Source of the DNA: an uncultured Corynebacterium sp.
GTDB lineage: Bacteria > Actinomycetota > Actinomycetes > Mycobacteriales > Mycobacteriaceae
Direction of reading: 5' to 3'
NCBI RefSeq assembly: GCF_943914615.1
Contig: NZ_CALUCS010000008.1
Span: forward strand, 2,037-66,036
Length of the DNA stretch: 64,000 nt
The position numbers and the translations under genes were made by a program. This document shows positions 1,136-62,990 of the stretch, piece by piece (the stretch's first letter is position 1; each line of letters opens with the position of its first letter). The notes beneath the pieces are model-generated. The model worked only from the letters and a program-made list of their open reading frames with translations. It was not told where the DNA came from and ran no database searches.

Positions 1136-3271
1136 TTAGCCCTCCAGCACGAACCAGCGCGCGGTGTGCGCCGGGATCTGCAGCACGGCGGAGGTGTCCA
1201 TGCCGTGGGAGCCGGTGGGCTCCGTGTGCAGGTCGCCGTTCACGCGCCCGGCGCCCTCGTATTGCACGTCGTCGGTGTTCAACACCTCGCGCCACGTACC
1301 GGCCTGCGGCAGGCCGATGCGGTAGTTCTCCTGGGTGGTGCCCGAGAAGTTAATTACACACGCCAGCTCGCGCCCACGGTGGCGTCGAATAAAGGAAAGA
1401 ACGTTATTCGCCGAGTCGTCGCTGGCGATCCACTGGAAGCCCTCCGGCGCGTGGTCCTGCCCCAGAGCGGGCTCGGAGTGGTAGAGCTTGTTCAGCTGGC
1501 TGGTCAGGGCGCTGATGCCGCGGTGGAACTCGCCCTCCCAGCCTTCGAGGTTGTGCCAGTCCAGGCCGCGGGACTCGTTCCACTCCTCGGTCTGGCCCCA
1601 TTCCTGGCCCTGGAAGAGCAACTTCTTTCCCGGGTGCGCCCACATGAACGCCAGGTAGCTGCGCACCATCGCCGCCTTATCCCAGGCGGAACCGGCGGGC
1701 ATGCGCGACCACAGGGTTCCCTTGCCGTGCACGACCTCATCGTGGCTGATCGGCAGCACGTACTTCTCGGAGTAGGCGTAGACCATCGAGAACGTGATCT
1801 CGTTGTGGTGGTAGCTGCGGTAGGCCGGGTCGCGCTGGATGTATTCCAGGCTGTCGTGCATCCAGCCCATGTTCCACTTCAGGCTGAATCCCAGGCCGCC
1901 CTCGCTGGTGGGGGCAGTCACGCCCGGCCAAGAGGTCGACTCTTCGGCGATAGTCAGCGAGCCCGGGCACTCGCGGTGCACGGTGGCGTTCATTTCCTTC
2001 AGGAAGTCCACCGCATCGAGGTTCTCGCGACCGCCGTACTGGTTCGGCAGCCAATCATCGCGGGAATAATCCAGGTACAACATCGAGGCCACGGCATCCA
2101 CGCGCAGACCGTCGATGTGGAACTCCTTGCACCAGTACAAGGCGTTGGCCACCAGGAAGTTACGCACTTCGTTGCGGCCGAAGTCGAACACGTAGGTGCC
2201 CCAGTCCGGCTGCTCGCCACGGCGCGGATCCGGGTGCTCGTAGCAGGCCTCGCCGTCGAAGCGTCCCAGAGCCCAGCCGTCCTTGGGGAAGTGGCCCGGA
2301 ACCCAGTCCATGATCACACCGATGCCTGCGCGGTGCAGTGAATCGATCAGGTAGCGCAGGTCATCCGGGCCGCCGTAGCGGTTATTCGGCGCGTAGTAGC
2401 TGGTCACCTGGTAGCCCCAGGAGGGCTCGAAGGGATGCTCGGATACACCCATGAGTTCTACGTGGGTGTAGCCCAGCTTCTGTACGTACTCCACCAGCTC
2501 CGCGGCCAGCTCCCGGTAGTTGCGGCCCTTGCGCCAGCTGCCCAGGTGCATTTCGTAGATGCTCATGGTCTCGTCCACGCCCACGGCGGCGCGGTGGGCC
2601 AGCCACTCGTCGTCGCCCCAGGCGTAGTCGCTGTCCGCTACGACGATGGAGGCGGTCGCGGGGGCGGGCTCGGCCAGGCGCGCCATCGGGTCGGCCTTGT
2701 CCAGGCGCACGCCGTCGCCGGTGGTGATGGAGAACTTGTAGTGCGCCCCGGCGCCCACGCTGGGGATCCACAGCTCCCAGATGCCGCTGCTGCCCAGCGC
2801 GCGCATGGGGTGCTGGTTAGCGTTCCAGCCGTTGAAGTCACCGATCACGGAAACGCCCGCGGCATGCGGCGCCCACACGGAAAAAGCCACGCCACCGCCC
2901 AGCACGTGGGCGCCGAGGACCTTCCACAGCTCCTCGTGCCGGCCCTCGCCGATGAGGTAGCGATCCAGGTCGCCGACGGTAGGCAAACGCCGATAGGGGT
3001 CCTCCAGGGTGGCGGTGGTGCCGCCGGCCCAGTTGACCTCGAAGACGTAGGTGTCTACGAAGTAGTCCACCGTCGCGGTGAATAGCGCCGGATATTCCGC
3101 TGCCGCCTCCATCTGCACCGGCTCGCCGCCGTTGATGCGCACAGCGACGGACTCCGCCCCGCACTGGACAGTGCGGATGGTGGTGGTGCCGTCACTGTTT
3201 TCGTGTGCCCCAAGTACGTCGTGTGGGGCGTGGTGCCTACGTTCTGCGAGCCGGAGGTAATCGTGGTTCAT
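1136..3271 (-). CDS. glgB: 1,4-alpha-glucan branching enzyme
   Basis: 711-aa GH13 branching-enzyme sequence (N-terminal [14 protein letters not shown]..., catalytic GH13 motifs). Convergent with the upstream thioredoxin gene. Confidence 0.9.
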
Positions 3272-3282: not shown

Positions 3283-5307
3283 CTACCTGCGGGGATCGTA
3301 TTCTTCCTGGGCTCGCATGCAGGCTCGTTCTCGCTCACCCTCACCAAGGGTGGGCAGTCGGAAGATGTGCGCAACCTGGAAATCCGGATCCAGGCGCACG
3401 TAGTTGCTGGCGCCCCAGGTGTAGGTCTGGTTTGTCGGCAGGTCTGTGACCTCGAAGTGCGCATCCTCCGGCGCGCCCAGGCCGAGCGCTTCGGTATCCA
3501 GGTTCACAGACCCCTCAACAATCGCGTTGGGGTTCAGGTTCACCACCACGAGCACCGCGTTGCCGGTGACACCGTCGACCTTCGAGTAGGCGAGGAGGTC
3601 GTCGCTCGTTGTTTCGTGTAAGCGCAGGGTGCGCTGTTGCTGCAATGCCGGGTTTTCTTGACGCCACAGGTTCAGATCCCTGATCCATTCAGCGCAGTTG
3701 TCCACGGAGTAGTCGCGCGGACGCAGCTCGTACTTCTCGGAGTCCAGGTACTCCTCCGAGCCTGCGTGAACCGGCGTGGATTCGTAGAGCTCAAAGCCGG
3801 AATACACACCCCACAGCGGGGAGAGGGTGGAGGCCAGGGCAGCGCGGATGGCGAACATGGCCTTCCCACCGGTCTGCAGGGATTCGTGCAGGATGTCCGG
3901 GGTGTTGACGAACAGATTCGGGCGGAAGACATCGGCGTAGTTGGCTATGTCCCCGGCGAATTCCTCCAGCTCCTCCTTGGTGGTCTTCCAGGTGAAGTAG
4001 CTGTAGGACTGCGTGAATCCCGCCTTGGCCAGGCCGTAGAGGCGCGGCGGGCGGGTGAAAGCCTCAGATAGAAAGACCACGTCCGGATCGGTGGCGTGGA
4101 CCTCGGCGATCAACCACTGCCAGAAGTTCGTGGGCTTGGTGTGCGGGTTGTCCACGCGGAAGATGCGTACGCCGCGGCCGATCCATAGGCGCACTACCTT
4201 CAGTACCTCGCGGTACAGGCCCTCCGGGTCGTTGTCGAAGTTCAGCGGGTAGATGTCCTGGTACTTCTTCGGCGGGTTTTCGGCGTAGGCGATGGTGCCG
4301 TCCGGCAGCACGGTGAACCACTCCGGGTGCTCCTTAGCCCACGGGTGGTCGGGGGCGCACTGCAGCGCCAGGTCCAGGGCGACCTTAAGGCCTTGGTCGT
4401 TGGCTGCGGCGACGAAGTTTTCAAAGTCCTCGACGGTGCCGAGGCGCGGGTGCACGGCCTCGTGGCCGCCGTCCTTGGAGCCGATGGCCCACGGGGAGCC
4501 GACGTCCTCCGGGGTGGGGGTCAGGGTGTTGTTCTTTCCCTTGCGGTTGATCTCGCCGATCGGGTGGATCGGCGGCAGGTACAAAACGTCGAAGCCCATG
4601 TCCGCGATACGCGGCAGGTCCGCGGCAGCGGTGGCGAAGGTGCCGTGCACCGGGTTGCCGTCGGCATCCCAGCCGCCGGTGGAGCGGGGAAACATTTCGT
4701 ACCAGGCACCCACGCCGGCGGTTTTCTCCTCCACCAGCACGTGGAACTCCGGGCCGCGGGTCAGCAGGTCGCGCAGCGGGCGTTTGTCCAAGGCCTCCTT
4801 GATCTCCGGGGAAAGGGCGGTGGCCAGGCGCTCGTCGATGCTCAAAGACTCATCGCGCAGCTGGCCGGGCACGGAGGCCACCAGCTCCCGGTGCTTACGG
4901 GAGGCCTTCTCCGCTGCCCGCTCGAACAGGCGCGCGCCGAGCTCAAAATCGTTGGCCAGGGCCTGGGCATCCTGGCCCGCGGCTACCTTCTTGGTGATTG
5001 CGTTGAACCATGTGGCCGCTGGATCCGACCAGGCGTCAACACGAAAGGTCCACATACCCGGCACATCCGGAACGAACACGGCATGGCGGCGATCGACGTC
5101 CTCGGGATCCGGCGACATCGTGATCTTCGCACGCCCTCCCTCGGCCCCGGCGGGACGACGGACGACGAGGGTGGCAGAAATAGCGTCGTGCCCCTCGCGC
5201 CAGACACTCGCGCTGACCGGGAACACCTGGCCGACGATGGCCTTGGCGGGAGTGGCTCCGTGGGAGATGACGGGGGAGATGCAGTCGATGCCGAGGCGGC
5301 CGGTCAT
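3283..5307 (-). CDS. glgE: Alpha-1,4-glucan:maltose-1-phosphate maltosyltransferase
   Basis: 675-aa GlgE-like GH13 protein starting [23 protein letters not shown]. The ATG at 5307 is preceded by AAGGAG. The ORF-track extension to 5784 lacks similarity and is rejected. Confidence 0.85.
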
Positions 5308-7275: not shown

Positions 7276-8505
7276 ATGGCCTTTTCTGTTGCCGAGCTGG
7301 ATTTTCTGCTCGCCGATTGTGCCGCCGGCTCGCCCCTTATTAATGACGCCACTACGTATCAATTGACCAAGAAATCCCTCGTGCAGGACCTTTCCCACCT
7401 GCGCAAGGCACACGGTGAGCACGCTCGCGCCCTGGTGGAACTGGTGCAGGCCCGCCGCGCGGGCAAGCTGCCGAAGAACTGGCTGATGGATAGCGAATCG
7501 GTTCAGCAGGCCACCCCGCCGGTGGTCGCCGCATGGCGTGCGGAGGTGTTGAAAGCCGCCGGGGTGGAGGCCGCCGTGGATGTCACCTGCAGCATCGGCA
7601 CCGAGCTGCACGCACTCTCTGCTGCGGGCCTGCGCGTGCTGGGCGGGGATCTGGACCACCAGCGCCTGCGGATGGCTCGTTTCAACGTGCCGGAGGCTCC
7701 GGTTGTGCGCATGGATGCGCTGCGCCCCGCCTTCGCCAGTGACCTGAAATCCGGCACACTGACATTCGGCGCGCTGAAGTCCGGCGTGGTGGTGGCGGAC
7801 CCTGCACGCCGGAACTCCTCGGGGCGCATCGCCAAGTTGGAAGACCTGCAGCCGTCGCTGCCGACGCTCATGGACTGCTACGACAAACTGGTGGTCAAGT
7901 GCGCGCCGGGTATCGACTACTCCGAGTTCGACGGTCACGTGGAAGTCGTTTCCGTCGACGGGGGAGTAAAGGAGACGTGTTTATATTCACCCGCGATCCT
8001 CGGGCGAGGGCGCCGGGCGGTGGTGATGGGGGCGTCATCAGTTAAAGAAACAGTGACAAGCGACGAACCCGAGGCGAACCGCGTGGGTGGGGCAGGGCGC
8101 TACATCGTGGACCCCGATGGTGCCATCGTGCGCGCCGGGCTGGTGCGCCAGTACGCGGCGCGGCACGGGCTGTGGCAACTGGACCCGCACATCGCCTACC
8201 TGACCGGCGACGAGCTGCCCGCGGGCGTGCGCGGCTTTGAGATTGTCGAGGAAGTGCCGCTGAAGAAGGCGCGGCCCGCTTTGGCCGGACTGGGCGCCAA
8301 GAGCGTGGAAATCCTCGTGCGCGGCGTGGATGTGGATCCCGATGACCTGCGAAAGAAGTGGAAGTTGAAGAAGGGCAGCGCGGGCGCAAGCGGTGCCGGA
8401 GCGGCGGATTCCGCCTATTCAGTGGTGGTCACGCGCATCGGTGAGGGCGGCGCCGCCAAGGCTGTGGCCTTTATCTGTAGAGCCCGCCGCAGCTCGCGGG
8501 GGTAG
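7276..8505 (+). CDS. Class I SAM-dependent methyltransferase, conserved next to etfBA in Corynebacteriales
   Basis: 409 aa with a methyltransferase-fold central region (VDVTCSIGTELHALSAAGLRVLGGDLD). Contains an internal AT-rich rare-codon segment at 7975-8065; see findings. Confidence 0.55.
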   Translation: MAFSVAELDFLLADCAAGSPLINDATTYQLTKKSLVQDLSHLRKAHGEHARALVELVQARRAGKLPKNWLMDSESVQQATPPVVAAWRAEVLKAAGVEAAVDVTCSIGTELHALSAAGLRVLGGDLDHQRLRMARFNVPEAPVVRMDALRPAFASDLKSGTLTFGALKSGVVVADPARRNSSGRIAKLEDLQPSLPTLMDCYDKLVVKCAPGIDYSEFDGHVEVVSVDGGVKETCLYSPAILGRGRRAVVMGASSVKETVTSDEPEANRVGGAGRYIVDPDGAIVRAGLVRQYAARHGLWQLDPHIAYLTGDELPAGVRGFEIVEEVPLKKARPALAGLGAKSVEILVRGVDVDPDDLRKKWKLKKGSAGASGAGAADSAYSVVVTRIGEGGAAKAVAFICRARRSSRG

Positions 8506-10487: not shown

Positions 10488-11687
10488 CTACGCGTCCTGC
10501 TGCCGGATGTAATCCTCCATGTACGGCAGCGTGAATCGCACGCGACCGAATCCCGCCGGCTCGATCAGGTCGCGGGTAATGAGTCGGCTCCGCCATGTAG
10601 ACAGGCCTCTTGGCTCTACGCTCAGGTGGGCGGCGATGTCGCCAGTCTTGACAGCTCTCGTTGCCGGTGCTGCTGCGCTCACCGGTTCTGGTTCGGACGC
10701 CCCCTCGTCGGCACTAATCGCAGCCATCGCGCGGAGGAAGTTCATTTCACCCTCCGGCAGGCGGCTGAGTGCGGGCCGGTGAACGTGGCTGGTCATGCGG
10801 TCGATAGCCCGCTGGGAGGCAGTCTCCACATGTGTGGCCTCGATGCTGCCCGAATCGTCGATCCCGGCGGCCGCCCAGGACAGTGCGCCAACCACTTGGA
10901 TGAGGTAGGGGTATCCGCGGCAAATGTCGGTGGCGCGGACTAGGGCGTCATCAGTAAAAGGGCGGCCAGAATCCGCGGCGGTGATGGCGAGGGTCTTCGA
11001 GACTTCCTCAGTCGGCACAGCGTGGAGGTCGACGCGGAAGGCGCGGCGGAGGAACGTGGTGCCCTCGTGTTGCAACAGGGTGTCCACACCGTGGGGTAGG
11101 CCCGCGCAGACGAAGGCGATGTCGCGCTCATCGCGCATGAGGTCTTGGACCGCTGTGGCCAGGCGGTGGAGCTGGTCAAGGTCGGCGGATTGCAGCTCGT
11201 CGAGGGTGATGAGGATGCCGGTGCCGGTGATTGCGTCGGAGAGTTCGCGCAGGCGGGTGATGAGTGTTGGTACGCTGCGGAGCTCTTCAGCTCGGGAGTG
11301 GGCTTCAGTACGGAAGCTGCCCACGCCGGTGATGGAGGCTCCGGAGAGTTTGCGCTCCGGTGGCTGCTCGATGCTGGTGATGGAGGTTGGGATGGTCGTT
11401 TCAACCAGCTCCGCGATCATGTCGCTATTGGGGTAGGCACGCAGGACAATCCAACCCTGGGCGCGGGCTTTGTCCTCGATCTCATTGAGCAGCACCGTTT
11501 TGCCCACGCCACGCAAACCGCTGGCCAAGATCGTGCGGTGCGGGGAGCCGGGACCTTCGGCGAGACTGAGCTCGAAATCCTGCAGCAGCTCGGCCCTGCC
11601 TGCCAGGTAGTATGGCGACGTGCCGAAGCTGGGGCGGAATGGGTTGCGCTGGCCGGGTACGATGGCTTGGTAGGAGGGGTCGGACAT
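10488..11687 (-). CDS. AAA ATPase of the archaeal-ATPase type (PF01637/COG1672-like) with a C-terminal winged-helix domain
   Basis: P-loop GLRGVGKTVLLNEI, Walker B ILITLDELQ, C-terminal wHTH-like RSRLITRDLIEPAGFGRVRFTLPYMEDYI. Antisense to the flanking + operons. RBS GGAGG precedes the ATG at 11687. Confidence 0.7.
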   Translation of the reverse strand: MSDPSYQAIVPGQRNPFRPSFGTSPYYLAGRAELLQDFELSLAEGPGSPHRTILASGLRGVGKTVLLNEIEDKARAQGWIVLRAYPNSDMIAELVETTIPTSITSIEQPPERKLSGASITGVGSFRTEAHSRAEELRSVPTLITRLRELSDAITGTGILITLDELQSADLDQLHRLATAVQDLMRDERDIAFVCAGLPHGVDTLLQHEGTTFLRRAFRVDLHAVPTEEVSKTLAITAADSGRPFTDDALVRATDICRGYPYLIQVVGALSWAAAGIDDSGSIEATHVETASQRAIDRMTSHVHRPALSRLPEGEMNFLRAMAAISADEGASEPEPVSAAAPATRAVKTGDIAAHLSVEPRGLSTWRSRLITRDLIEPAGFGRVRFTLPYMEDYIRQQDA

Positions 11688-11978: not shown

Positions 11979-13223
11979 GTGAACAAAACCAACCACGCAA
12001 CGAAGAGCCCAGTTCCAGGATCGCCGACTGGTGCAGCGGGCGCGCGGGGGCGCCTGTACGTGGACAACGCGGCGTCCCAGGCGCTACGCCCCGAGGCGCA
12101 AGAGGCGATGGAGCGCGCCGCGGGACTGCTGAACCCCGCTGGCCAGTACAGGACCGGCCGCGATGCCCGCCGCAGCCTCGAGGACGCCCGCGAGCAGATC
12201 GCCGAGCTCCTCGGCGCGGATGCAGCAGAGGTGATCTTCACCGGCTCCGGCACGGAGGCCGACAACATTGCTATCCAAGGCCTCGCATACGGCTCGAAGG
12301 CCCACCGGGGCGCGCACGTGATCGCGAGCTCCGACATTGAACACCCCGCCGTGGTCGAGTCCGTCGACTGGCTCACCATGGGGCCGCTCGATCTGGGCTT
12401 TGAACGTGCGGTTCTTCCTGTGGACGCCGCCGGCCGCATCCGCGCCGAAGACTGGATTGCCGGCCTAGAAAGCGGCGCGGGCGCGCCCAGCGACCTCGCG
12501 CTGCTGACTTGCATGTGGGCCAACAACGAAACCGGCGCGATCCAGCCGGTGGAGCAACTCGCTAGCTTTGCTCGCAACAACGGCGTGCCTTTCCACACCG
12601 ACGCAGTGCAGGCCGTCGGCCACATCCCCGTTGACTTCCACGCCCTCGGCGCCACCACGCTCGCCGCCAGCGCCCACAAGTTCGGCGGCCCGAAGAACAC
12701 GGGCCTTCTGCTTGCCCGCCGGGACGCGGACATCTTAAGCCCCGTGCGCGGAGGCGGTCAGGAGCGAAAGCTCCGCTCCGGCACCGTAAACGTGCAGGGT
12801 GCGGTGGGATGCGCGGCGGCATTGGCGTCATCAATTAAAGAACTAGAACAAGCAACCGCCAGAATGCGCGTGGCGCGCGAGGTGCTGCGCGCGGCGGCGC
12901 AGGGCATCGATGGTGTGCGGATCTGGACTCCCGAGGTCGGCGCGCTGCCCGGGCACCTGCACATGAGCTTCCCCGGCGCTGAAGGCGACTCACTGATCAT
13001 GCTTTTGGACGCCGCCGGGGTGGACGCATCGACGGGCTCCGCCTGCAGCGCCGGGGTGAACCGCGCCAGCCACGTGCTGACCGCCATGGGCGTGCCAGTG
13101 GACGTGGCAAGGGGAGCGCTGCGGCTAACCCTGGGCGCGGACATCACCGACGACCAGGTCGAGTACCTGGCGGGCATCCTGCCGCGCGTGGTCGAGCAGG
13201 CCCGCGCTGCCGGAATGGCCTAG
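11979..13223 (+). CDS. Cysteine desulfurase (NifS/IscS family)
   Basis: LYVDNAASQ..., the SGTEADN motif and the PLP-lysine region [12 protein letters not shown]. Start placed at GTG 11979 after AGGGTAGGGGG; the ORF-track ATG at 11916 is also possible. Confidence 0.85.
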
Positions 13224-14522: not shown

Positions 14523-15638
14523 ATGGCAGGCAACACCGCGCAGTCGGAGCCGATCGGGCGCCTGGGCTGGTGGGAGAACACCGTCACGGACCACGCGGAG
14601 GTGCGCGCAGCGATCCAGTCCGCGCTGACCCGCACGTGCGACGTGGACGAGGACACGGGCGTGCCTCCAGCTCTGTCGCTTCCGCGCTGTGGCCGGGCGG
14701 GGGACCTCACGGCGCTGACGGCCAGCTTCGCGCAGCTGCCGATCCGCGCTAATACCCGCGGGTGGGAGCTGACTACCCATCCGAGCCTGGAATCCCGCCG
14801 CATGGACGGCTGGGTACGCGAGGCGACGGATGCCGCCGAGGAGCTGCTAGCGGGCAAGGTCGAGCGGCTGATGCTGCACGTCACCGGCCCGTGGACCTTC
14901 GGTGCGGACGTGGAGTTCCGCGGCCACCCAGTTTTGCGCGACCGCCCGGCGTTTAAGGACTGCGCCCTGCACCTGGGTTTCGGCGTAGAGCAGGTCGCGG
15001 GCGCGCTGTCAGCGGCGCTCGGCTGCGAAGTCATCATTGCGCTCCACGAGCCGCGCGTCCGCGAGGTCATGGGTGGCCTGCCCGGCGCCACCCGCTTCGA
15101 TACGATCCCCGCCGTCGACCGTGAGTTCATCTACGGGGTGTGGGAGCGCTTCCAGCAGCAGGTCTCGCGCCCGGTGGTGCTGGACACGGGGTCTTTGATC
15201 GATGACGCCCTCTCGCACGCGCCCGGCTTCCACCGCATCGTGGTGCCCGCGGATCAGTTGCGGACAACCAGCGGCAAAGACCTGGTTGGCGGGATGATCG
15301 GACGCGGCCAGGGGATTGGCTGGGCGGTGCCCCAGATGGCGCCGCCGGTTGGCAGGGAGACTGCCGGCGGTCGAGGGCATGCTGTCGGGCATCCGGAGCC
15401 AGCCGGTGGGGAGAGTGTCGGCGCCTCTGCCGAGGACGTCAGCGGGGCCGACGTGGAGGCCGCCGCGGGCGACATCGCCCGCGCCGTCCTAAGTCAGTGG
15501 GCGCAATGGACCCTGCCCGCCGATGAACTGCCGGGGCTGGTGGACATCGTGGTGCCCGAGGGCAAGCGCACCGCCGCGCAGGCCTCCGTGGCTGCGGCGC
15601 GGGCGCGCCACGCGGCGGCGCTGCTCTGGCGCAATTGA
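14523..15638 (+). CDS. Conserved hypothetical protein downstream of mnmA
   Basis: 371-aa ORF with coding-like periodicity and no recognised motif. Start at ATG 14523; the track extension would overlap mnmA. Confidence 0.5.
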   Translation: MAGNTAQSEPIGRLGWWENTVTDHAEVRAAIQSALTRTCDVDEDTGVPPALSLPRCGRAGDLTALTASFAQLPIRANTRGWELTTHPSLESRRMDGWVREATDAAEELLAGKVERLMLHVTGPWTFGADVEFRGHPVLRDRPAFKDCALHLGFGVEQVAGALSAALGCEVIIALHEPRVREVMGGLPGATRFDTIPAVDREFIYGVWERFQQQVSRPVVLDTGSLIDDALSHAPGFHRIVVPADQLRTTSGKDLVGGMIGRGQGIGWAVPQMAPPVGRETAGGRGHAVGHPEPAGGESVGASAEDVSGADVEAAAGDIARAVLSQWAQWTLPADELPGLVDIVVPEGKRTAAQASVAAARARHAAALLWRN

Positions 15639-21528: not shown

Positions 21529-21748
21529 TTTGGCGAAATCCTATAGCAGCGCCTATTTGTTTCTTATCTTCCCCAAGTAGCACAATAAAGGTGTTAGGGT
21601 CCTTTTCCTGTTTCTTTCTGACGCCCACTCGGCCCCGGCCGAACCCGAAGGGAAGTCACTGTTGCGGCAGGGGATGAAGACCGACGCTTCAAGAAGACAG
21701 CTGAATACAGAGATCATCTGAATACACCGAAATGGGGCACTAGGGATC

Positions 21749-23200
21749 ATGGACGATAAAAGAAATCCCCAGGGCGCTGCTCCTGGATACGCAGTCGCTT
21801 CCACTCCGAAGATCGCGGAGTCTAAGAGGGAGAAGAAAGACAACACCCACTGGCTGTACATTGCCGTGATCATTGCCGTGATCGCCGGCATCATCTTCGG
21901 CCTAGTGGCTCCAGATACCGCCAAGGGCTTTAAAGAGCTGGGCACCACTTACGTCAGCCTGATCAAGATGATCATCGCCCCGGTGATCTTCTGCACGATC
22001 GTGCTGGGAATCGGCTCGGTGAGGTCTGCGGCGTCAGTAGGTAAAGCAGGCGGCCTGGCACTGACCTACTTCGTTACGATGTCCACCTTCGCCCTCGCGG
22101 TGGGCCTGGTGGTCGGCAACATCCTGCAGCCGGGCGATGGCCTGAACCTGCACGCCGGCGGGAGTAGCACCTTCGGCAACGGCGAAGAGCAGAAGGCCGA
22201 AGGACTGGTTGGCTTCGTTCAAGGCATCGTCCCGGACACCTTCTTCGGCGCCTTCACCAGTGGCCAGATCCTGCAGGTGCTTTTCATTGCTCTACTGGTG
22301 GGCTTTGCCACGCAGTCGATGGGCAAGGCCGGCGAACCGATCCTTAGCTTCGTGGCTACGCTACAGAAACTGGTATTCAAGATTCTGTCCTGGATCCTGT
22401 GGCTCGCCCCGATCGGCGCCTTCGGTGCCATGGCTGGTGTAGTCGGCGGCACGGGCATCAAGGCAGTTCTGCAGCTGGGCGTGCTGATCCTCGGCTTCTA
22501 CATCACCTGTGTGATTTTCGTATTCGGCATCCTGGGCCTCATCCTGCGGGTATTCACGGGCTTCAACATCTTCAAACTGGCGAAGTACCTGGGTCGCGAA
22601 TACCTGCTGATCTTCGCCACCAGCTCCTCGGAGTCTGCACTGCCGAACCTGATGCGCAAGATGGAGCACATCGGTGTGGACAAGTCCACGGTCGGCATCG
22701 TCGTGCCGACGGGCTACTCCTTCAATCTAGACGGCACCGCCATCTACCTGACGATGGCCGCCATCTTCATCTCGGACGCCATGAATATCCACATGGGACT
22801 CGGCGACCAGATCAGCCTGCTGGTGTTCATGATCATCGCCTCCAAGGGCGCGGCGGGCGTGTCCGGCGCGGGCATCGCCACGCTGGCAGCCGGCCTGCAG
22901 TCCCACCGCCCGGAGCTGCTGGGTGGCGTGGACATCATCGTCGGCATCGACCGCTTCATGTCCGAGGCCCGCGCGCTGACCAACTTCTCCGGCAACGCAG
23001 TGGCCACCCTGCTGGTCGGCAAGTGGACACACACCATCGACAAGGAACAGGTCAAGCGCGTGCTGAACGGCGAGGACCCGTACGTGGATGCCGGGGACGA
23101 CCACAACGTCGACCTCAAATACCCGTCGGTGAAGAACCCGGCTACGGCACACCTGCAGCCAACCCCGCAGGTAAACCTGGACGACTACCGTCAGCAATAA
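21749..23200 (+). CDS. dctA: Dicarboxylate/amino acid:cation symporter (DctA/GltP family)
   Basis: About 10 TM segments and DAACS-family motifs (GFATQSMGKAG, SSSESALP, VPTGYSFNLDGT). Confidence 0.8.
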   Translation: MDDKRNPQGAAPGYAVASTPKIAESKREKKDNTHWLYIAVIIAVIAGIIFGLVAPDTAKGFKELGTTYVSLIKMIIAPVIFCTIVLGIGSVRSAASVGKAGGLALTYFVTMSTFALAVGLVVGNILQPGDGLNLHAGGSSTFGNGEEQKAEGLVGFVQGIVPDTFFGAFTSGQILQVLFIALLVGFATQSMGKAGEPILSFVATLQKLVFKILSWILWLAPIGAFGAMAGVVGGTGIKAVLQLGVLILGFYITCVIFVFGILGLILRVFTGFNIFKLAKYLGREYLLIFATSSSESALPNLMRKMEHIGVDKSTVGIVVPTGYSFNLDGTAIYLTMAAIFISDAMNIHMGLGDQISLLVFMIIASKGAAGVSGAGIATLAAGLQSHRPELLGGVDIIVGIDRFMSEARALTNFSGNAVATLLVGKWTHTIDKEQVKRVLNGEDPYVDAGDDHNVDLKYPSVKNPATAHLQPTPQVNLDDYRQQ

Positions 23201-23393: not shown

Positions 23394-25061
23394 ATGTCAC
23401 ATGAAGCTTCACGTCGCGTACGCGAGGAGAACGCCCCGGCAGGGCAGGCCCCAAACACAGAAGAAAACGCCGGCACGGAAGCCGCCGCAGCGGAAGCCGT
23501 TGTCGGTGCTGATTCCAACACAGACACGGAGGCCATCTCCGGTGCGGAGTATCTAAAGAAGATCGTCTCCGCACCCGTCTACCGCGTGGCCACGAACACG
23601 CCACTCGAAGACATGGAAACGCTGTCGAAGCGTATCGGCAACGAAGTGTTGGTCAAGCGCGAAGACCTACAGCCCGTGCACAGCTTCAAGATCCGCGGTG
23701 CATTCAACCGCATGTCCCAGCTCACGGACGAAGAACGCGCCCGTGGAGTCGTCGCCGCCTCCGCCGGCAACCACGCCCAAGGCGTAGCGCTATCCGGCAC
23801 GGAACTTGGCATCCGCACCGTTATCGTTATGCCGGAAGTGACCCCCAGCATCAAGATCGACGCCGTTCGCAGCTTCGGCGGGGAAGTGCTGCTGCACGGC
23901 GCGAACTTCGACGAAGCCAAGGCCAAGGCCATGGAACTCTCCGAGGTTGAGGGCATGGTGTGGGTCGCCCCCTTCGACGACGAAGCCGTCATCGCTGGTC
24001 AAGGCACCGCAGGGCTGGAGATCTTCCAATCCCGCCCCGACGTCGACCGCGTCTTCGTACAGGTCGGCGGCGGCGGACTGGCCGCCGGGATCTCCGTGCT
24101 GCTCAAAAACCTAGATCCCAACATCCAGGTCATCGGCGTGGAGCCGGAGGAATCCGCCTGCCTCACCCACGCACTCGCCGCCGGGCACCCCGTGGCCCTC
24201 GACCACGTCAGCCTCTTCGCCGAAGGCGTGGCCGTTAAGCAGATTGGCAGTGAAACCTTCCGAGTCTGCCGCGAATACCTCGACGACGTCATCACCGTCA
24301 GCTCCGACGAGATCAGCGCTGCTATCAAGGACATCTTCGACGACACGCGCGCCATCGCCGAGCCAGCCGGCGCTGTCGCCCTGGCAGGCCTGAAGCGCTA
24401 CGCCGCCACCCATCAGGTCGAAGGGGAGACCCTGGCACACGTCCTGTCCGGCGCGAACGTGAACTTCCACTCCCTGCGCTACGTCTCCGAACGCGCGGAA
24501 ATCGGCGAGGGCGGCGAAGGCATCTTCGGCGTGAGCATCCCCGAGCGCGAGGGAGCCTTCCTTGAATTCTGCAAAATCCTCGGCCACCGTGCCGTCACAG
24601 AATTCAGCTACCGAGTCGGCCAGCGCGATGGGGAAAAGCCCGCCCGCATTTTCGTGGGCGTCAAGCTCAAAAACGGCGAAGACGAGCGCAAGGCCATCGC
24701 CGAAGACCTCCGCGAGGCAGGCTACGGCGTGGTCGACCTGTCCGACGACAACGTGGCGAAGGAACACGTCCGCTACATGATCGGCGGCACTCCCGGCCAG
24801 CACGTCGACGAAACCGCCTACAGCTTCGAATTCCCCGAAAACCCGGGAGCCCTGCTGCACTTCCTGGAAGTGCTGGGAACCCGCTGGAACATCACCGGTT
24901 TCCACTACCGCAGTTTCGGCATGGACCACGGGCGTGTGCTGGCGGCTTTCGAGGACGTCTCCGGCGACGCGGAATTCCAGGAGCACCTGCAGCAGCTCGG
25001 CTACCACGCCACGGACGTGACGGACAGCCCGGCCTACGACTTTTTCATCAGCGCCGAATAA
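23394..25061 (+). CDS. ilvA: Threonine dehydratase, biosynthetic, with a low-complexity N-terminal extension
   Basis: PLP fold (SFKIRGAF, SAGNHAQGVA, GVQVGGGGL) and two C-terminal ACT-like regulatory domains. Start at ATG 23394; the ORF-track start at 23283 is rejected. Confidence 0.85.
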   Translation: MSHEASRRVREENAPAGQAPNTEENAGTEAAAAEAVVGADSNTDTEAISGAEYLKKIVSAPVYRVATNTPLEDMETLSKRIGNEVLVKREDLQPVHSFKIRGAFNRMSQLTDEERARGVVAASAGNHAQGVALSGTELGIRTVIVMPEVTPSIKIDAVRSFGGEVLLHGANFDEAKAKAMELSEVEGMVWVAPFDDEAVIAGQGTAGLEIFQSRPDVDRVFVQVGGGGLAAGISVLLKNLDPNIQVIGVEPEESACLTHALAAGHPVALDHVSLFAEGVAVKQIGSETFRVCREYLDDVITVSSDEISAAIKDIFDDTRAIAEPAGAVALAGLKRYAATHQVEGETLAHVLSGANVNFHSLRYVSERAEIGEGGEGIFGVSIPEREGAFLEFCKILGHRAVTEFSYRVGQRDGEKPARIFVGVKLKNGEDERKAIAEDLREAGYGVVDLSDDNVAKEHVRYMIGGTPGQHVDETAYSFEFPENPGALLHFLEVLGTRWNITGFHYRSFGMDHGRVLAAFEDVSGDAEFQEHLQQLGYHATDVTDSPAYDFFISAE

Positions 25062-26248: not shown

Positions 26249-26350
26249 TGGCGTCAAAAAGCTAAAAGACCGTTAGAGCAACGAACGTTTAGAACTCCAA
26301 GCTTTAAAGAGTTCAAGCTTTAAAGAACTAAAGAACTTAAAGAACCAAAG
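26249..26350. repeat. AT-rich spacer between gatC and gatA: a GGCGTCA-family element followed by tandem CTTTAAAGA / TAAAGAAC units
   Basis: ggcgtcaaaaagctaaaagaccgttagagcaacgaacgtttagaactccaagctttaaagagttcaagctttaaagaactaaagaacttaaagaacc. Confidence 0.7.
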
Positions 26351-27990: not shown

Positions 27991-28731
27991 ATGGTCAGGC
28001 CCGGGCGCCCCGCGGCGAGCGTCGCGGATCAGCGTATGGTGGGGGACATGGGTAAAATTCCCGAACTTTACACAGGCGACGGCTTCGTCGAAGACCCCGA
28101 CGGATCCCGACGTTGGGGAGTCCTCGGCGCGGCGGGACTGTTCCTCGTCACCGACGACCGCCACGTCCTGATGCAGCACCGCGCCAAGTGGACCAACCGC
28201 GGCGGCACCTGGGCTCTGCCCGGCGGCGCCATCGACGTCGGCGAAACACCCACCGACGGCGCCCTCCGCGAAACGTGGGAAGAGACAGGCGTGGGGGCGT
28301 CATCGGTAAAGGTGCACCAAGAAATCGTCACCTCCACCGTGCCCGTCAAGGTTGCGTACTGCCGCCTGCCCGTCCGCGACGACGAGTGGCACCTCTTCGC
28401 CGACATCGAAAAAATCATCGAACGGAACGGAGACCCCCGCAAGGCTCTGCAGGACTTTCCAGTCCGACACCCCAGCCTCGACGCATCGCTAAATGCCCAC
28501 GGAATCTTCGGACTCGGCGGCACATTCTGGTGGCAATACGAAAACCCGGAAATCAACGAGTGGACATACACCACCGTCCTGGCCACCTGCTCCGAACATC
28601 TGGAGCTGCACCCGACCGCCGAATCACTGGAGCTACTGTGGCAGCCCATCGACCAGCTCGAAGAACTGCCACTGATGCCGGAGTTTAAGGCCAGTTTGCC
28701 CGCCATCCGGGCAGCAGTAGACTCCCTTTAA
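27991..28731 (+). CDS. NUDIX hydrolase
   Basis: Nudix box GGAIDVGETPTDGALRETWEETG. Confidence 0.8.
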   Translation: MVRPGRPAASVADQRMVGDMGKIPELYTGDGFVEDPDGSRRWGVLGAAGLFLVTDDRHVLMQHRAKWTNRGGTWALPGGAIDVGETPTDGALRETWEETGVGASSVKVHQEIVTSTVPVKVAYCRLPVRDDEWHLFADIEKIIERNGDPRKALQDFPVRHPSLDASLNAHGIFGLGGTFWWQYENPEINEWTYTTVLATCSEHLELHPTAESLELLWQPIDQLEELPLMPEFKASLPAIRAAVDSL

Positions 28732-30120
28732 GTGAAATACCCCGCGCTGCCGCTTCCACTGCCACAAGCATGGCGCGCCCTCGTGGCGCTGTGCATCGGC
28801 TTCTTTATGATCCTGCTGGATCAAACGATTGTCGCCGTCGCCACGCCCGCATTCCAAGCCGACCTGCACGCCGACTACGGCCAAGTGCTGTGGGTCACCA
28901 GTGCCTACCTGCTGGCGTTCGCGGTGCCTCTGATGGTCACCGGCCGGCTCGGCGACCGCTTCGGCCCGAAGAACCTCTACATCGCGGGCATGACGATCTT
29001 CACGCTCTCGTCACTTGCCTGCGGACTGGCCGGCAGCATAGAAACGCTAATCGCCGCCCGCGCCGTGCAAGGTATTGGCGGATCTTTATTGACGCCCCAG
29101 ACCATGAGCGTGATCAACCGTATCTTCCCGCGAGACAAGCGCGGGGCCGCACTGGGCATCTGGGGTGCCACGGCGGGAATATCCACGCTCGCCGGACCAC
29201 TGCTCGGAGGCCTCATCACCCAGTACGCAACCTGGCAGTGGGTGTTCTTCATCAACGTACCCATCGGTGTGCTGTCCGTGGTGATGGTCGCCCGCTGGGT
29301 CCCACGTTTCCAGCCGACCGAGGAACGCATCAACGTGCCGTCGATCCTGCTTTCCATGGTGGCGATGACGATGGTGATCTACGGCATCCAAGAAGGCGAC
29401 CCCGCCGGCTGGGCGCCGTGGATCTGGGCACTGCTGCTCGGAGGCGTAGCGCTGCTGGTGGCCTTCGTCTGGCTGCAATCCCGCCTATCCGCAGGCAGCG
29501 CGCTGGTTCCGATCTCCCTGTTCGCACGCCGCCACTTCGCATTCGGCAACGCATCCATCTTCACCATGGGCTTCACCGTCGCCGGCATGATGGTGCCAGT
29601 GATGATGTATCTGCAGGAAGTTCACCGTTTCAGCCCGATGAAGGCATCCATCGTTGTGACCCCCATGGCCATCATCGCTGGAATTATGGCGCCGTTCGTC
29701 GGCCGGCTGGTCGACCGCTACGAGCCCAGGCGCTTCGCCGTCCTCGGATTCTGCCTAATGGCCACCGGCGTGGCCGCGTTGGTGTTCTCCATGCGCCCCG
29801 AACGCCCACTATGGATGATGATCGGAGCGTTCGTGATCCTCGGATTCGGAAACTCCTTCGTCTGGGCCCCGAACTCCACCACCACCCTGCGCGACCTGCC
29901 GCCCCAGTTCGCCGGAGCGGGCTCTGGAATGTACAACGCCACCCGCCAACTCGGCGCCGTTACAGGAGCCGCCGTTATCGCCGCAGTCGTCCAAGCACGC
30001 GTCAGTGCCGTCGGTCCTCAGGCCTTCGGTGACTCCCTGCTGCCCGCGGTGATCATGCTGATCCTCGGCGCAGTGGCCTCCGGCATGGCTCGGCCAGAGG
30101 GCAGTCGCGGAGACGAGTAG
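28732..30120 (+). CDS. MFS transporter (DHA2-like drug:H+ antiporter)
   Basis: About 14 TM segments and an MFS motif (GRLGDRFGPK). GTG start is adjacent to the NUDIX stop codon. Confidence 0.8.
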   Translation: MKYPALPLPLPQAWRALVALCIGFFMILLDQTIVAVATPAFQADLHADYGQVLWVTSAYLLAFAVPLMVTGRLGDRFGPKNLYIAGMTIFTLSSLACGLAGSIETLIAARAVQGIGGSLLTPQTMSVINRIFPRDKRGAALGIWGATAGISTLAGPLLGGLITQYATWQWVFFINVPIGVLSVVMVARWVPRFQPTEERINVPSILLSMVAMTMVIYGIQEGDPAGWAPWIWALLLGGVALLVAFVWLQSRLSAGSALVPISLFARRHFAFGNASIFTMGFTVAGMMVPVMMYLQEVHRFSPMKASIVVTPMAIIAGIMAPFVGRLVDRYEPRRFAVLGFCLMATGVAALVFSMRPERPLWMMIGAFVILGFGNSFVWAPNSTTTLRDLPPQFAGAGSGMYNATRQLGAVTGAAVIAAVVQARVSAVGPQAFGDSLLPAVIMLILGAVASGMARPEGSRGDE

Positions 30121-30238
30121 GCGTCAATAATAAAGACAATAAAGACCGGAAAACCAGTAGAGGCCAGCTAAACCCCCGAAACCGTCACGAAAACATCCCG
30201 CCCGGCAGATCCGGCGGGGTATCGCTAAACTTTAAAAC

Positions 30239-34954: not shown

Positions 34955-36541
34955 GTGACCTCCCGCACAAATCGTGCTGGTCAGAATACTGTGGAGTGCG
35001 TGAATAACAACGCGAAGCCCAACAGTTCAGACGACGCTTTGTTCGGCAACTCCGCGGATGATCTAGCGGATGACCTGAATAACGATATCGACGTGCCCGT
35101 CTACCGTCGGGACGCGCAGAAACCCGCTGGCGCCACGCCTTCCGCCAAGGCGTCCAAAATTGACAAGCCCGGTGAAGAGACTGTGGAGGCGCCGACCGAG
35201 TCGGGCTCTGCGGCAGCTGTGGCGGCCGAGGACAGTTCGAACAAGGACGCTGGCTCAGACGGTGCGTCGGCGGATCCGTCAGCTGGCGCATCGGCTAAAA
35301 CTCCAGAGAATGAAACTCCAAAGACTGCGGCTCCCGTAGAGGAGAAGCTCGCCAAGCGGGACATTTATGCGGTACTTGGTCGGGCCCGTCCGCAGCGTAT
35401 TGAGAGCCGCCCGCCGGAGCCGGAAGTGGACCTGTCGAAGCTAGACGCCTCCCAGCCCGCTGCGGGAGCGGGTGTGGCTGGGGCCGACTCAAACGCTGAC
35501 GCTCGCGCTAATGTCGGTGATACCAACGGGCCGTCCGACCGTTGGGGCAAGGTTGATGACGCCAACCCGGCGGAGCGGGACACCGCCTTCAACCGACAGC
35601 CGAAGAGCAGCGTCGACGCTGCCGCAGGCGCTGACCGGGATCGTGATGCAGCTGCGGCTGGTGTAACTGGAGCTGGTGCGACTGGAGCTGGCGCGGCCGG
35701 TGCGGCAGTCGCGTCTGGCGCGGGCACGGTGGGTGCCGCTGATGACTCTGAGATTGGCGGCACCGACACGACGGGATCGGCTACTGGCGCGGTTACCGCC
35801 CCTGAAACGGCGCCAAACGCTGACCGGGATCGCGATGCAGCTGCGGCCGCTGGGGCTGGCGCTGCCGGCGCGGGTGCAGTGGCAGGCGCTGACCGGGATC
35901 GTGATGCAGCTGCGGCCACGGGCGCTGAAGTTGGCAGTGCTGACACGGCGGCCGGCGCTGACACGGCGGCTGGAGCTGACACGGCGGCTGGAGCGGGCGC
36001 GGCGACCGGCGCGGGCGCAGAAGTTAAGCGCGGTACCACCAGCTTCGGACTGTTCATTCTGCGCGCGGTGCTGGGCGCGTACCTGCTGGTACGCGGCCTG
36101 CAGACCCTGTTCGCCTTCGGCGGAGACCCGGGCGTCGACGTATTCCAGAGCCAGCTTGAGAACTACAACTTCACCGACATCCTCGCCGTCGGCATTCCCG
36201 TCGCGGAGGTTGTCGCCGGTGGCCTACTTCTCCTTGGCCTCGTCACGCCTTTCGGCGCGGCCCTCGCCACTATCGTCGGTGGATTCATGGCGTTCCACAA
36301 CCTCGACAGCTTCCAAGGAACCCTATGGCCATACGGCCTGAACCCACACGTCCAGCTGTGGGCGGCGCTGACGGTGGCGTCAATAAGCCTCATCTTCCTC
36401 GGCCCCGGCCGAATCAGCCTCGACCGCAGTAGGGGATGGGCAACCCGACCGTTGGCGTCTGCATGGATTTTCTTCGTAGTCGCAGCGGCGGCCACCGCCG
36501 GGCTTTGGCTCGGCGTCGGCGGAGGCAACCCGTTCAATTAA
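34955..36541 (+). CDS. DoxX-family membrane protein with a roughly 340-aa low-complexity N-terminal region
   Basis: C-terminal 4-TM DoxX-like domain (FGLFILRAVLGAYLLVRGLQ...). N-terminal region is Ala/Asp/Gly-rich with three ADRDRDAAAA nucleotide-level repeats. Confidence 0.6.
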   Translation: MTSRTNRAGQNTVECVNNNAKPNSSDDALFGNSADDLADDLNNDIDVPVYRRDAQKPAGATPSAKASKIDKPGEETVEAPTESGSAAAVAAEDSSNKDAGSDGASADPSAGASAKTPENETPKTAAPVEEKLAKRDIYAVLGRARPQRIESRPPEPEVDLSKLDASQPAAGAGVAGADSNADARANVGDTNGPSDRWGKVDDANPAERDTAFNRQPKSSVDAAAGADRDRDAAAAGVTGAGATGAGAAGAAVASGAGTVGAADDSEIGGTDTTGSATGAVTAPETAPNADRDRDAAAAAGAGAAGAGAVAGADRDRDAAAATGAEVGSADTAAGADTAAGADTAAGAGAATGAGAEVKRGTTSFGLFILRAVLGAYLLVRGLQTLFAFGGDPGVDVFQSQLENYNFTDILAVGIPVAEVVAGGLLLLGLVTPFGAALATIVGGFMAFHNLDSFQGTLWPYGLNPHVQLWAALTVASISLIFLGPGRISLDRSRGWATRPLASAWIFFVVAAAATAGLWLGVGGGNPFN

Positions 36542-47204: not shown

Positions 47205-47722
47205 TGAGCACGAACAAGGTACAGGTCCACACCCTGTCCGTCCTGTGTGAGGACGTCGACGGTATCATCTCGCGAATCTCCGGCATGTTCACCCGCCGCG
47301 CGTTCAGCATCATCTCGATCAGCTCTGGTCGCACGGAGGTCGAGGGGATCAACCGCATCACCATCATCGTCGAGGGCGAGGATCACGTGGTGGAGCAGAT
47401 CACCAAGCAGCTGAACAAGCTCATCCCCGTTATTAAGGTCACGCGCCACGACCCGGAGTCAATCGTCTCCCGCGGCCTGATGATGGTGAAAGTTTCCGCT
47501 GACAACGCGAACCGCACACAGGTGGTGGAGTCCGCGAAGCTGTTCCGCGCACACGTGGTGGACGTCGGCCCGGAGTCGGTGATCATCGAGTGCACAGGTA
47601 CGCCGTCGAAGCTGCAGGCTCTGCTGGATGTTTTGGAGCCGTTCGGTATCCGCGAGCTTGTCGAGGCGTCGCCGACTGCGATCAGTCGCGGTCCTCGCGC
47701 CATGTACCCGGCGAATCTCTAG
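47204..47722 (+). CDS. ilvN: Acetolactate synthase small subunit
   Basis: ACT-domain N-terminus; the ATG overlaps the ilvB stop (TAATG). Confidence 0.9.
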   Translation: MSTNKVQVHTLSVLCEDVDGIISRISGMFTRRAFSIISISSGRTEVEGINRITIIVEGEDHVVEQITKQLNKLIPVIKVTRHDPESIVSRGLMMVKVSADNANRTQVVESAKLFRAHVVDVGPESVIIECTGTPSKLQALLDVLEPFGIRELVEASPTAISRGPRAMYPANL

Positions 47723-47854
47723 GTTCTTTGGTGACGCCTTTAGTCGGCAGCCGGGTGGGCGTCACTACCTACGAAAGAGGGCAGCAGCCCAAAAGAGTTC
47801 ACTATGTGGACGCCAAAGTCTCACCAAATGAAATAAAGTCTGCTATAAAGGTAG

Positions 47855-50449: not shown

Positions 50450-51346
50450 ATGATGAACTCTCGAAACTCTCAGCGTCGCTCCCTGCGCCGTACCTTTGCC
50501 CTCCTTGTTGCGACGATTCTCGGCGCCACGGCCCTTGTTGCCTGTGGCGCCGGTGACGGTGACAACGGTGGAGGCGGTAAAGACGGCGAGCCAAGGGTGG
50601 TCGCGTTGGACTGGCGATATGAGGAAATCCTCGAGGCACTGGGCGTAAAGCCTGTCGGCATTGTAGAGATCGGCAAGTCCGCCGGGCCGAAGACTCTGGA
50701 GGGCAAGCTCGAGGGTATCGAATCGGTTGGACAGGCAAAGCAGCCGAATCTGGAGGTCATTCAGTCTCTTGAGCCCGACCTGATCCTCGCTAGCCCAACG
50801 CGGCAGGAATCGATCATGCCGCAGCTGGAGGAAATTGCAGAGACGAAGTCCTACAGCGACGCCAGCTACACCGACGTCCTTGACTCCATGGATGACATCG
50901 CAAAGAAGCTGGGCAAGGAAGATAAAGCTAAGGAAGTGCGTGAGCGTATCGAAGACAAGGTCGAAGAGGCAAAGAAACTCGTCAAGCCGAACACTCGTGC
51001 AGCGCTGGTCGGATGGTCGAAGGGCACTCTCTACACCTGGATCAAGGATTCCTTTGCAGGCTCTCTTCTTTCTGACGCCGGTTACGTTTACGGCTACGAC
51101 GGTTCCCGTACCGCTATCGAGTCCAAGACTGACGTTGCCGAAATGACGGGTGATAAGCTCCCCTCAATGAAGCTGGACCGGATGTACTTGTACAACGACA
51201 TCGAGGGCTTTAAGTCCAGCCCATATAAGGATGTGGTGAAGGACATCGTGGACGTGGAGCAGGACACCTGGTCCCGTTCTCGTGGCCCGCTGGCCGCAGA
51301 AGCAATGCTGGATCAGATCATTGAAACGGAGAACGCTCGTAAGTAG
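50450..51346 (+). CDS. Iron-siderophore ABC transporter substrate-binding lipoprotein
   Basis: Lipobox LVAC after a signal peptide; FecB/FhuD-like fold. Confidence 0.75.
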   Translation: MMNSRNSQRRSLRRTFALLVATILGATALVACGAGDGDNGGGGKDGEPRVVALDWRYEEILEALGVKPVGIVEIGKSAGPKTLEGKLEGIESVGQAKQPNLEVIQSLEPDLILASPTRQESIMPQLEEIAETKSYSDASYTDVLDSMDDIAKKLGKEDKAKEVRERIEDKVEEAKKLVKPNTRAALVGWSKGTLYTWIKDSFAGSLLSDAGYVYGYDGSRTAIESKTDVAEMTGDKLPSMKLDRMYLYNDIEGFKSSPYKDVVKDIVDVEQDTWSRSRGPLAAEAMLDQIIETENARK

Positions 51347-54323: not shown

Positions 54324-54395
54324 AGACGTTAAAGACGCTAAAGGCGCTAAAGATAGGGTCGTTAGAAGTATTTCGAAGTGCAGTTCCGGCGTCAC

Positions 54396-54416
54396 TAATG
54401 AAAACGACTTGCAATA
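54396..54416. promoter_or_regulatory. Zur-box-like palindrome upstream of the COG0523 GTPase
   Basis: TAATGAAAACGACTTGCAATA matches 17/21 of the corynebacterial Zur consensus TAATGAAAATGATTTTCATTA. Confidence 0.45.
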
Positions 54417-57404: not shown

Positions 57405-57452
57405 GCGTTCTTTTATGGATTGATCTTTTATGGACGCCCCCCGGTCGCGCGA

Positions 57453-62827: not shown

Positions 62828-62990
62828 ACTTGTCGGAGCCGTGGCAAGCGCGTTAATCGCGGATTACGTGAAAACAAATTCATGGTTAATGGTCGGGGAG
62901 AAGGCGGCGTCATAAAGAAGAACAAGGACAAGACCGCAAAGAAGGGGCATAGCAAGAGGTAGAAGGGGCAATGGAGTAGGGTGTGGAAAC

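Follow-up and report, generated by a model that had tools for sequence, protein, structure and literature searches.

The closest described parallels to the element analysed here are the uptake signal sequences (USS) of the Pasteurellaceae and the DNA uptake sequences (DUS) of the Neisseriaceae, for which equal use of both strands, a preference for spacers, particular reading frames, positional stability and dialects have been described. The USS combines a core (AAGTGCGGT) with AT-rich flanks, whereas the DUS (GCCGTCTGAA and its dialects) is a fixed 10-12-mer without an A-tract and is bound by ComP, a minor pilin of type IV pili. Genomic over-representation has been stated for both (PMC1939737). 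Here we analyse a family of short elements in a 64,000-nt stretch of DNA from an uncultured Corynebacterium sp. (contig NZ_CALUCS010000008.1, positions 2,037 to 66,036; hereafter the window), and find that they form a genuine family: a non-palindromic DNA word of about 17-20 bp that is specific to a clade. It begins with the core GGCGTC, to which each lineage adds its own seventh base; an A-rich tract poor in T, usually with AAAG(A) in it, follows within 0-12 nt. In the anchor copy the core GGCGTCA (8031-8037) is followed by TCAGTTAAAGAAACAG.

Among known systems, the architecture and population behaviour of this word appear to match uptake signal sequences best. As in the Pasteurellaceae USS, a non-palindromic GC core carries AT-rich tracts on one side; copies recur every 1-3 kb or so, with neither strand favoured, independently of gene direction and with a preference for spacers; and they occupy particular frames at variable protein positions, with sites that are stable between species and dialects that differ between them. 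The differences are that the core here is shorter, is over-represented only 2-3-fold and stands at a variable spacing from its A box, and that the host is an actinobacterium without known competence. With the DUS the word shares single-base dialects, inverted spacer pairs and copies in housekeeping genes, although the window holds one inverted pair only; a superficial resemblance to the DUS itself (GGCGTCAGAA at 21625, 41332, 43621 and 51079) is regarded as coincidence. The cyanobacterial HIP1 (GCGATCGC) is likewise a clade-specific word kept in coding and non-coding DNA beyond the demands of codon usage; its function is unsettled and a repair-linked drive has been proposed for it, but it is a palindrome and has no one-sided AT-rich flank.

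A GC core with a one-sided A-rich tail

The window belongs to a Corynebacterium of the C. jeikeium group and has a G+C content of 64% and a GC skew that is positive throughout. It carries glgB, glgE, etfBA, iscS, mnmA, ligA, gatCAB, pfkA, ilvBNC, serA and leuB in that order (Pfam and synteny), and orthologues of its AAA_16 ATPase (10488-11687) in C. jeikeium, C. evansiae and C. macclintockiae are 88-97% identical. It was analysed together with samples of about 20 kb from relatives. GGCGTCA occurs 45 times in the 64 kb (23 copies on the plus and 22 on the minus strand), against 16.2 ± 3.6 expected from dinucleotide shuffles, 15 from an order-2 Markov model and 23.6 ± 3.6 from synonymous-codon shuffles in which each protein and its codon usage were preserved. 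These k-mer statistics bear out an excess over chance in the window, and every copy listed in the original prediction exists, with coordinates 0-7 nt off. The base following GGCGTC is A in 45 cases, G in 26, C in 19 and T in 7, so that A accounts for 46%, compared with about 15-20% after other xxxGTC contexts.

A tail was scored where at least 6 of the 14 nt 3' of the core were A, which has a background frequency of 3.7%. By this measure 21 of the 45 GGCGTCA copies are tailed (p ~1e-18), as are 5 of the 19 GGCGTCC and 3 of the 26 GGCGTCG copies, while the 15 variants with one mismatch in core positions 1-6 reach 2/204 in total. The window thus has 29 tail-bearing copies where about 3.4 are expected; among those in coding DNA 15 were observed, compared with about 2 in synonymous shuffles, and core plus tail stands about 10-fold above expectation in coding DNA. 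The same element emerges without prior choice of the core: GGCGTCA ranks 1st of 1420 frequent heptamers for downstream AT content, and an unbiased scan of all hexamers places GGCGTC at the top for an A-rich tail (p = 1.4e-18). In a further 19 kb of flanking DNA, which had played no part in defining the motif, a tail follows 6 of 7 GGCGTCA copies but 3 of 150 control hexamers. The subfamily with GGCGTGA at 11976, which had been put forward as possibly related, is not supported: this heptamer class is tailed in 1 of 21 cases.

The effect is confined to one side and begins immediately 3' of the core; purine richness upstream, though striking by eye, is weak (0.55 vs 0.48-0.51). Within 12 nt of the core, AAAG is found at 22 of 97 GGCGTC copies and at 13 of 691 control hexamers (p = 4e-13), and AAAG(A) is present in 59% of tails but in 18% of generic A-rich stretches. 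A raw excess of TAAAGA comes in good part from small tandem arrays of TAAAGA-based units with a period of 8-9 bp, which lie in spacers near motif copies (26320-26355, TAAAGAAC x4; 30129-30146, AATAAAGAC x2; 54318-54353, CGCTAAAGA x4). We do not claim a rigid register of A within the tail: the positional pattern largely tracks codon phase, because most coding copies share one phase.

Tailed copies occur about once per 2-3 kb, in both orientations and in genes as well as spacers: 10 are sense, 12 antisense and 7 in spacers. Spacers make up 8% of the window, so that tailed copies are enriched there about 3-fold (p = 0.007). The strands are used alike (16 tailed copies on plus and 13 on minus), in a window of uniform skew. 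In this the word departs from Chi and KOPS, which are also short, asymmetric and over-represented, and are read by DNA translocases or nucleases, but are strongly co-oriented with replication. Coding copies mostly take one phase, G|GCG|TCA in sense and xxT|GAC|GCC in antisense, the phases that favoured codons permit, and the Ala-Ser frame described for the copies at 8031, 12824, 28296, 22030, 34559 and 37379 is confirmed. The copies themselves are not palindromic. As neither sense over antisense nor either strand is preferred, the element belongs to duplex DNA and not to mRNA or protein, in agreement with the proposal that the similarity lies at the DNA level and is not protein homology.

Maintenance and dialects among species

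When the host genes are aligned with their orthologues, it is apparent that the word has been written into existing codons. The THUMP-like methyltransferase shows no lineage-specific gap around 8031 against 11 homologues, down to 51% identity, and codon alignments of ligA, dctA, gatB, ilvA, iscS, glgB, glgE and the NUDIX and MFS genes have the corresponding segments present in the relatives aligned. The word arises by synonymous changes such as TCG to TCA, ATC to ATA and CTG CTG to TTA TTG, which bring rare A/T-ending codons into genes that are often conserved, together with replacements at variable residues. One ligA copy lies on the KxDG motif, where DGASINLLY is encoded through GCG TCA ATA AAC in the window and GCG TCG ATC AAC in C. 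bovis; Leu-Leu of the MFS protein is TTA TTG in the window and CTG CTG in C. bovis; and in gatB the word comes partly from replacements of variable residues (VASLVNEGK, as against VAALVSEGK in relatives). The suggestion that the copies are miniature in-frame insertion elements, remnants of miniature inverted-repeat transposable elements or recombination scars could draw on near-identical 18-20-nt copies in unrelated genes (8031, 10944 and 12824) and on the small duplications that adjoin spacer copies. It is refuted by the gap-free orthologue alignments; moreover, one copy overlies the ligase active-site motif, and the copies show no terminal repeats, target duplications or palindromic structure, so that we regard an insertion origin as scarcely credible.

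The word is also held constant at sites that should drift. In GGCGTCA copies, third codon positions of the core are changed in 0/32, 1/30 and 2/32 cases relative to three more distant members of the group, whereas one-mismatch control words with the same ascertainment have 24-40% of these positions changed. Third positions ending in A or T, normally the fastest-changing sites in this GC-rich genome, diverge by 8-25% in tails and by 32-53% elsewhere. At the 8031 site the peptides differ (ASSVKET in the window, ASGQQEI in C. falsenii), yet the DNA of both has the core and an A-rich tail, and the word stands at the same gene positions even where proteins are 52% identical.

The seventh base varies by lineage: the jeikeium group has A and, in fewer copies, C, whereas C. 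falsenii and C. auriscanis have G. At two independent C. falsenii loci, 7 of 22 and 10 of 18 GGCGTCG copies are tailed, compared with 0 of 6 GGCGTCA copies; in C. auriscanis a tail follows GGCGTCG in 6 of 11 cases, and a C. resistens-like contig has both seventh-base forms. The shift towards A-rich tails affects all copies with a lineage's own seventh base as a class, the other three bases staying at about background. Eight orthologous sites could be compared directly between the window and C. falsenii: the seventh bases are A and G, respectively, at 5032, 7350, 8031, 12824, 14068 and 28296, C and G at 12428, and G in both at 1381, where an Arg CGA codon forbids A. The signal was absent from the samples of C. 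bovis, C. variabile, C. anserum, C. urogenitale, a metagenome-assembled genome with a 92%-identical GatA and an unrelated control. Other candidate cores in species lacking the signal (GGGAAG in C. anserum, GTACCG in C. variabile and CAACGC in C. urogenitale) proved on inspection to be noise. At the pfkA stop codon of the C. resistens-like and C. auriscanis contigs, GGCGTCG with an A-rich tail lies directly 3' (L011, 14831; L013, 13464 and 13498), and in C. auriscanis this word is tandemly duplicated together with the last codons of the gene.

A probable recognition word and its alternatives

Taken together, these results make it very likely in our view that the word is a maintained DNA-level element. 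The one-sided A-tract, the synonymous conservation, the indifference to orientation and the class-wide switch of one base make a recognition word its best explanation, and we think it probable that the word is read by a protein; a binding site was among the interpretations first offered, and this putative class is the one that orientation independence, synonymous conservation and the species-specific seventh base favour. The reader of such a word would be a DNA-handling protein that recognises a specific sequence in the double helix and whose target has shifted by one base from lineage to lineage; selection, or a molecular drive tied to that protein, would keep the word in place across the genome. 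As a self-DNA tag, it would offer a GC core for specific recognition beside an easily deformed A-tract, and might have spread through biased uptake and recombination. Our tentative first choice overall is a recognition word for a DNA-handling protein that may serve as a self-DNA tag of the uptake-signal type. That the tag is specifically of the uptake type, a step suggested by analogy with the USS, is by itself rather doubtful. On a still more speculative footing, GGCGTC(A/G) with its A-tract could be the first uptake-signal-like self-DNA tag outside the Proteobacteria, serving a sequence-selective DNA transaction of the mycolate-bearing C. jeikeium/falsenii/auriscanis/resistens lineage, be it natural transformation or some other import or exchange of DNA, through a receptor whose specificity changed by one base between species.

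Several observations weigh against an uptake-type tag. The bare heptamer is merely 2-3-fold above expectation, far below the 9-12-mers of Haemophilus or Neisseria, and the hexamer GGCGTC is not over-represented at all (97 observed, 111 in shuffles), the oddity being its 3' context. The AAAG box stands anywhere between 1 and 12 nt from the core, most often at about 2 or 7, a looser arrangement than a rigid binding site would show; orthologous tails keep their composition and not their sequence, as a continuing sequence-directed mutational process could also achieve; and a single window with samples from relatives limits genome-wide inference. In the literature searched, natural transformation, competence or uptake sequences are unreported for Corynebacterium. 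The heptamer, searched for in either orientation, matched primer sequences only, and a paper on spaced motifs names C. jeikeium only for its clustered regularly interspaced short palindromic repeats.

Two alternatives remain serious. The word may be the binding site of an abundant chromosomal protein with no role in uptake, whether architectural, concerned with segregation or condensation, or a defence-related self marker, that reads the GC core and the narrow minor groove of the A-tract; this is possible, if not likely. The evidence for a maintained, orientation-independent duplex word fits it equally, about 1000 sites per genome are obtained by extrapolation, one head-to-head pair resembles a dimer site, and the arrays of TAAAGA units with their 8-9 bp period adjoin some copies. 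On the other hand, parS, matS, Noc and SlmA sites are palindromic and regional, and nucleoid proteins are not known to us to burden housekeeping genes with specific words of some 20 bits that require rare codons. Less probable again, and rather unlikely, is that the word is the footprint of sequence-directed mutation or repair, in which the action of an enzyme recognising GGCGTC(A/G), such as a repair enzyme, a nicking enzyme or a Type IIS-like restriction enzyme, is followed by A-biased short-patch resynthesis 3' of the site, and tails build up where coding allows. A normal hexamer frequency with only the 3' context unusual, a strictly one-sided effect that starts right after the core, and orthologous tails that keep A-richness but not sequence would all follow from this, and a continuing process would look like conservation at A/T third positions; restriction-modification enzymes, moreover, typically differ between lineages by single bases in their specificity. 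Sites of the Type IIS, IIG and III systems resemble the word in being asymmetric and 5-7 bp long, in a one-sided effect at short distance and in single-base shifts of specificity, and GGCGTC is one form of GRCGYC and contains GCGTC. Restriction sites are, however, usually avoided or neutral and have no maintained A-tract or synonymous conservation; the conservation of the word speaks against avoidance. Tail building involved more than one class of change (G to A, C to A and C to T) and also moved first codon positions, with effects on the amino acids; AAAG(A) is 3-fold enriched over generic A-rich DNA, and synonymous positions of the core diverge well below half as much as controls, which a downstream process leaves unexplained; we know of no precedent for it.

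The remaining readings are much weaker. An element acting on RNA or transcription, such as an internal promoter, a pause or terminator, a Shine-Dalgarno-like signal or a ribonuclease site, is suggested by tails that resemble AAAGGA-type ribosome-binding sequences, by their complement TTCTTT, which matches the TTNTTT pause motif of other bacteria, and by the spacer copies at 26250, 30120 and 62906, which lie upstream of genes in the same orientation. The promoter and RNA-level readings nevertheless fail because sense and antisense copies show no preference (10 and 12) and -10-like hexamers are few: TAnnnT occurs in 2 of 29 tails on the motif strand, and in 8 of 29 on the other strand compared with 17% of controls. 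The internal promoter-like element suggested in the original prediction is accordingly unsupported. A T-tract would, besides, precede any stem and not follow it, and sense copies sit in the middle of essential genes; an Rfam scan of the window gave no match at gathering thresholds, and a tRNA scan found none. We consider any such RNA-level role very improbable. Smaller still, and practically negligible, is the chance that the family is a compositional artefact of codon usage in a GC-rich genome, where AT-rich islands catch the eye. The core is indeed common because GAC-GCC and GCG are favoured codons, and one listed copy, at 54388, is probably coincidental; but the association has p ~1e-18 in the window, is not reproduced by codon-preserving shuffles, and replicates both in the hold-out DNA and in two further species whose seventh base differs.

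If the recognition word is indeed read by a protein, it would point to an undescribed genome-wide DNA transaction in multidrug-resistant skin corynebacteria, powerful enough to impose rare codons and altered amino acids on housekeeping genes such as ligA, gatB, iscS and ilvA. Were it an uptake-type tag, natural transformation in Corynebacterium would be predicted, and motif-bearing DNA would provide a handle for testing transformation and for better genetic manipulation; as a mutational footprint it would bring to light a new mutagenic or repair activity that is directed by sequence. Either way, the single-base dialect is a ready comparative experiment for finding the partner protein.

Copies in the window and neighbouring features

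The members of the family and one doubtful member are collected in Table 1.

Table 1. Copies of the GGCGTC word in the window, with their locations and the state of related sites.
Position	Strand	Core and following bases	Location	Remark
1381..1401	+	GGCGTCG AATAAAGGAAAGAA	antisense in glgB	identical in C. falsenii
3645..3665	-	GGCGTCA AGAAAACCC	sense in glgE	missing at C. falsenii orthologous site
5032..5052	+	GGCGTCA ACACGAAAGG	antisense in glgE	C. falsenii orthologue GGCGTCG ACACGAAAAG
7330..7350	-	GGCGTCA TTAATAAGGGG	antisense, THUMP-like methyltransferase	C. falsenii orthologue GGCGTCG GATAAAGAGGAAGG
8031..8051	+	GGCGTCA TCAGTTAAAGAAAC	sense, THUMP-like methyltransferase	anchor copy; Ala-Ser-Ser-Val-Lys-Glu
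10944..10964	+	GGCGTCA TCAGTAAAAGGG	antisense, AAA_16 ATPase	codons TTT ACT GAT GAC GCC
12408..12428	-	GGCGTCC ACAGGAAGAACC	antisense in iscS	C. falsenii orthologue with GGCGTCG
12824..12844	+	GGCGTCA TCAATTAAAGAACT	sense in iscS	C. falsenii orthologue GGCGTCG GCGATAAAGGAG
12993..13013	-	GGCGTCC AAAAGCATGATC	antisense in iscS	absent in C. falsenii
15189..15209	-	GGCGTCA TCGATCAAAGACC	antisense in hypothetical gene	
21605..21625	-	GGCGTCA GAAAGAAACAGGAAAAGG	exonuclease gene-dctA spacer	
22030..22050	+	GGCGTCA GTAGGTAAAGCAGG	sense in dctA	weaker tail; relatives have GCC TCC GTG here
24657..24677	+	GGCGTCA AGCTCAAAAACGG	sense in ilvA	
26250..26270	+	GGCGTCA AAAAGCTAAAAGACC	gatC-gatA spacer	upstream of TAAAGAAC tandem array
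28296..28316	+	GGCGTCA TCGGTAAAGGTG	sense in NUDIX gene	weak tail; C. falsenii GGCGTCG at same place
29076..29096	-	GGCGTCA ATAAAGATCC	antisense in MFS gene	Leu-Leu as TTA TTG
30120..30146	+	GGCGTCA ATAATAAAGACAATAAAGACC	overlaps MFS stop codon	
34559..34579	+	GGCGTCA CTAGTAAACGAAGG	sense in gatB	
35149..35169	+	GGCGTCC AAAATTGACAAGC	sense in DoxX-domain gene	
37359..37379	-	GGCGTCA AAAGATAAAGACC	sense in uvrA-like gene	
38534..38554	+	GGCGTCG ACAATAAGGCGAC	antisense in uvrA-like gene	weak member
43621..43641	+	GGCGTCA GAACCATCAAGAAAGACC	antisense in MscS-like gene	
47718..47778	- and +	cores 47732-47738 (-) and 47758-47764 (+)	ilvN-ilvC spacer	head-to-head pair, tails outward
51059..51079	-	GGCGTCA GAAAGAAGAGAGC	antisense in periplasmic-binding-protein gene	
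52025..52045	-	GGCGTCA CCAGCAAAAAGAG	antisense in FecCD permease gene	
53371..53391	-	GGCGTCA CAAAAAACGACC	antisense in FecCD permease gene	
53698..53718	+	GGCGTCA ACAACCAATCTCG	sense in ABC ATPase gene	weak member
54388..54408	+	GGCGTCA CTAATGAAAACGAC	beside Zur box	doubtful member
54943..54963	-	GGCGTCA ACAAGAGTGACC	antisense in cobW	weak member
57418..57438	-	GGCGTCC ATAAAAGATCAATCCATAAAAGAACG	just past stop of minus-strand gene, beside serA terminator	kept in L019 and L020
60474..60494	+	GGCGTCC GAAGTATCCCAAAAC	sense in leuB	weak member
62906..62926	+	GGCGTCA TAAAGAAGAACAAGGAC	divergent phoD / FAA-hydrolase spacer	kept in L019 and L020

The doubtful member lies upstream of a cobW-like gene, where the A-rich sequence CTAATGAAAACGACTTGCAATAACG (54391-54415) is kept in the close relatives L019 and L020 and the adjoining GGCGTCA core is not. 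The A-rich sequence is consistent with the Zur box named in the original prediction, and the core is probably its chance neighbour, because it is not kept in these relatives. The TAAAGA array at 54318 is missing in L019. The head-to-head pair, 10 bases past the ilvN stop codon, folds to -32.2 kcal/mol (47715-47790; z = -2.6), and the idea of an intrinsic terminator at 47732-47764 was dropped because no T-tract follows the stem.

Other repeats and unusual genes lie among these copies. The gatC-gatA spacer, which holds one of the TAAAGA arrays, is 173 nt long in the window and 22-97 nt in five other Corynebacterium species. After the pfkA stop codon comes a 32-bp tandem repeat in 3.2 copies (31282-31386), and between pfkA and gatB an open reading frame with an HNH endonuclease domain (31606-33240) occupies a place taken in several relatives by a gene for a DUF4261 protein; tandem repeats of 18 and 36 bp lie within this frame (32516-32627 and 33076-33188), and its G+C content at third codon positions is below that of its neighbours. 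Between the AAA_16 ATPase gene and iscS, the spacer has repeated TGTTAGATC / TTAGATC units (11719-11765), which are possibly an operator; AGATCT and GATCTA are also prominent in the same region of the relatives L008 and L009. Upstream of ilvB (44527-44758) there is an 11-bp repeat in 5.7 copies and a 25/50-bp repeat in about 4 and 2 copies, matching at up to 98%. Beyond the left end of the window, the flanking DNA carries the mismatch endonuclease gene nucS (L021, 13269-13994) and the ATP synthase operon, and tailed copies of the motif occur there too.

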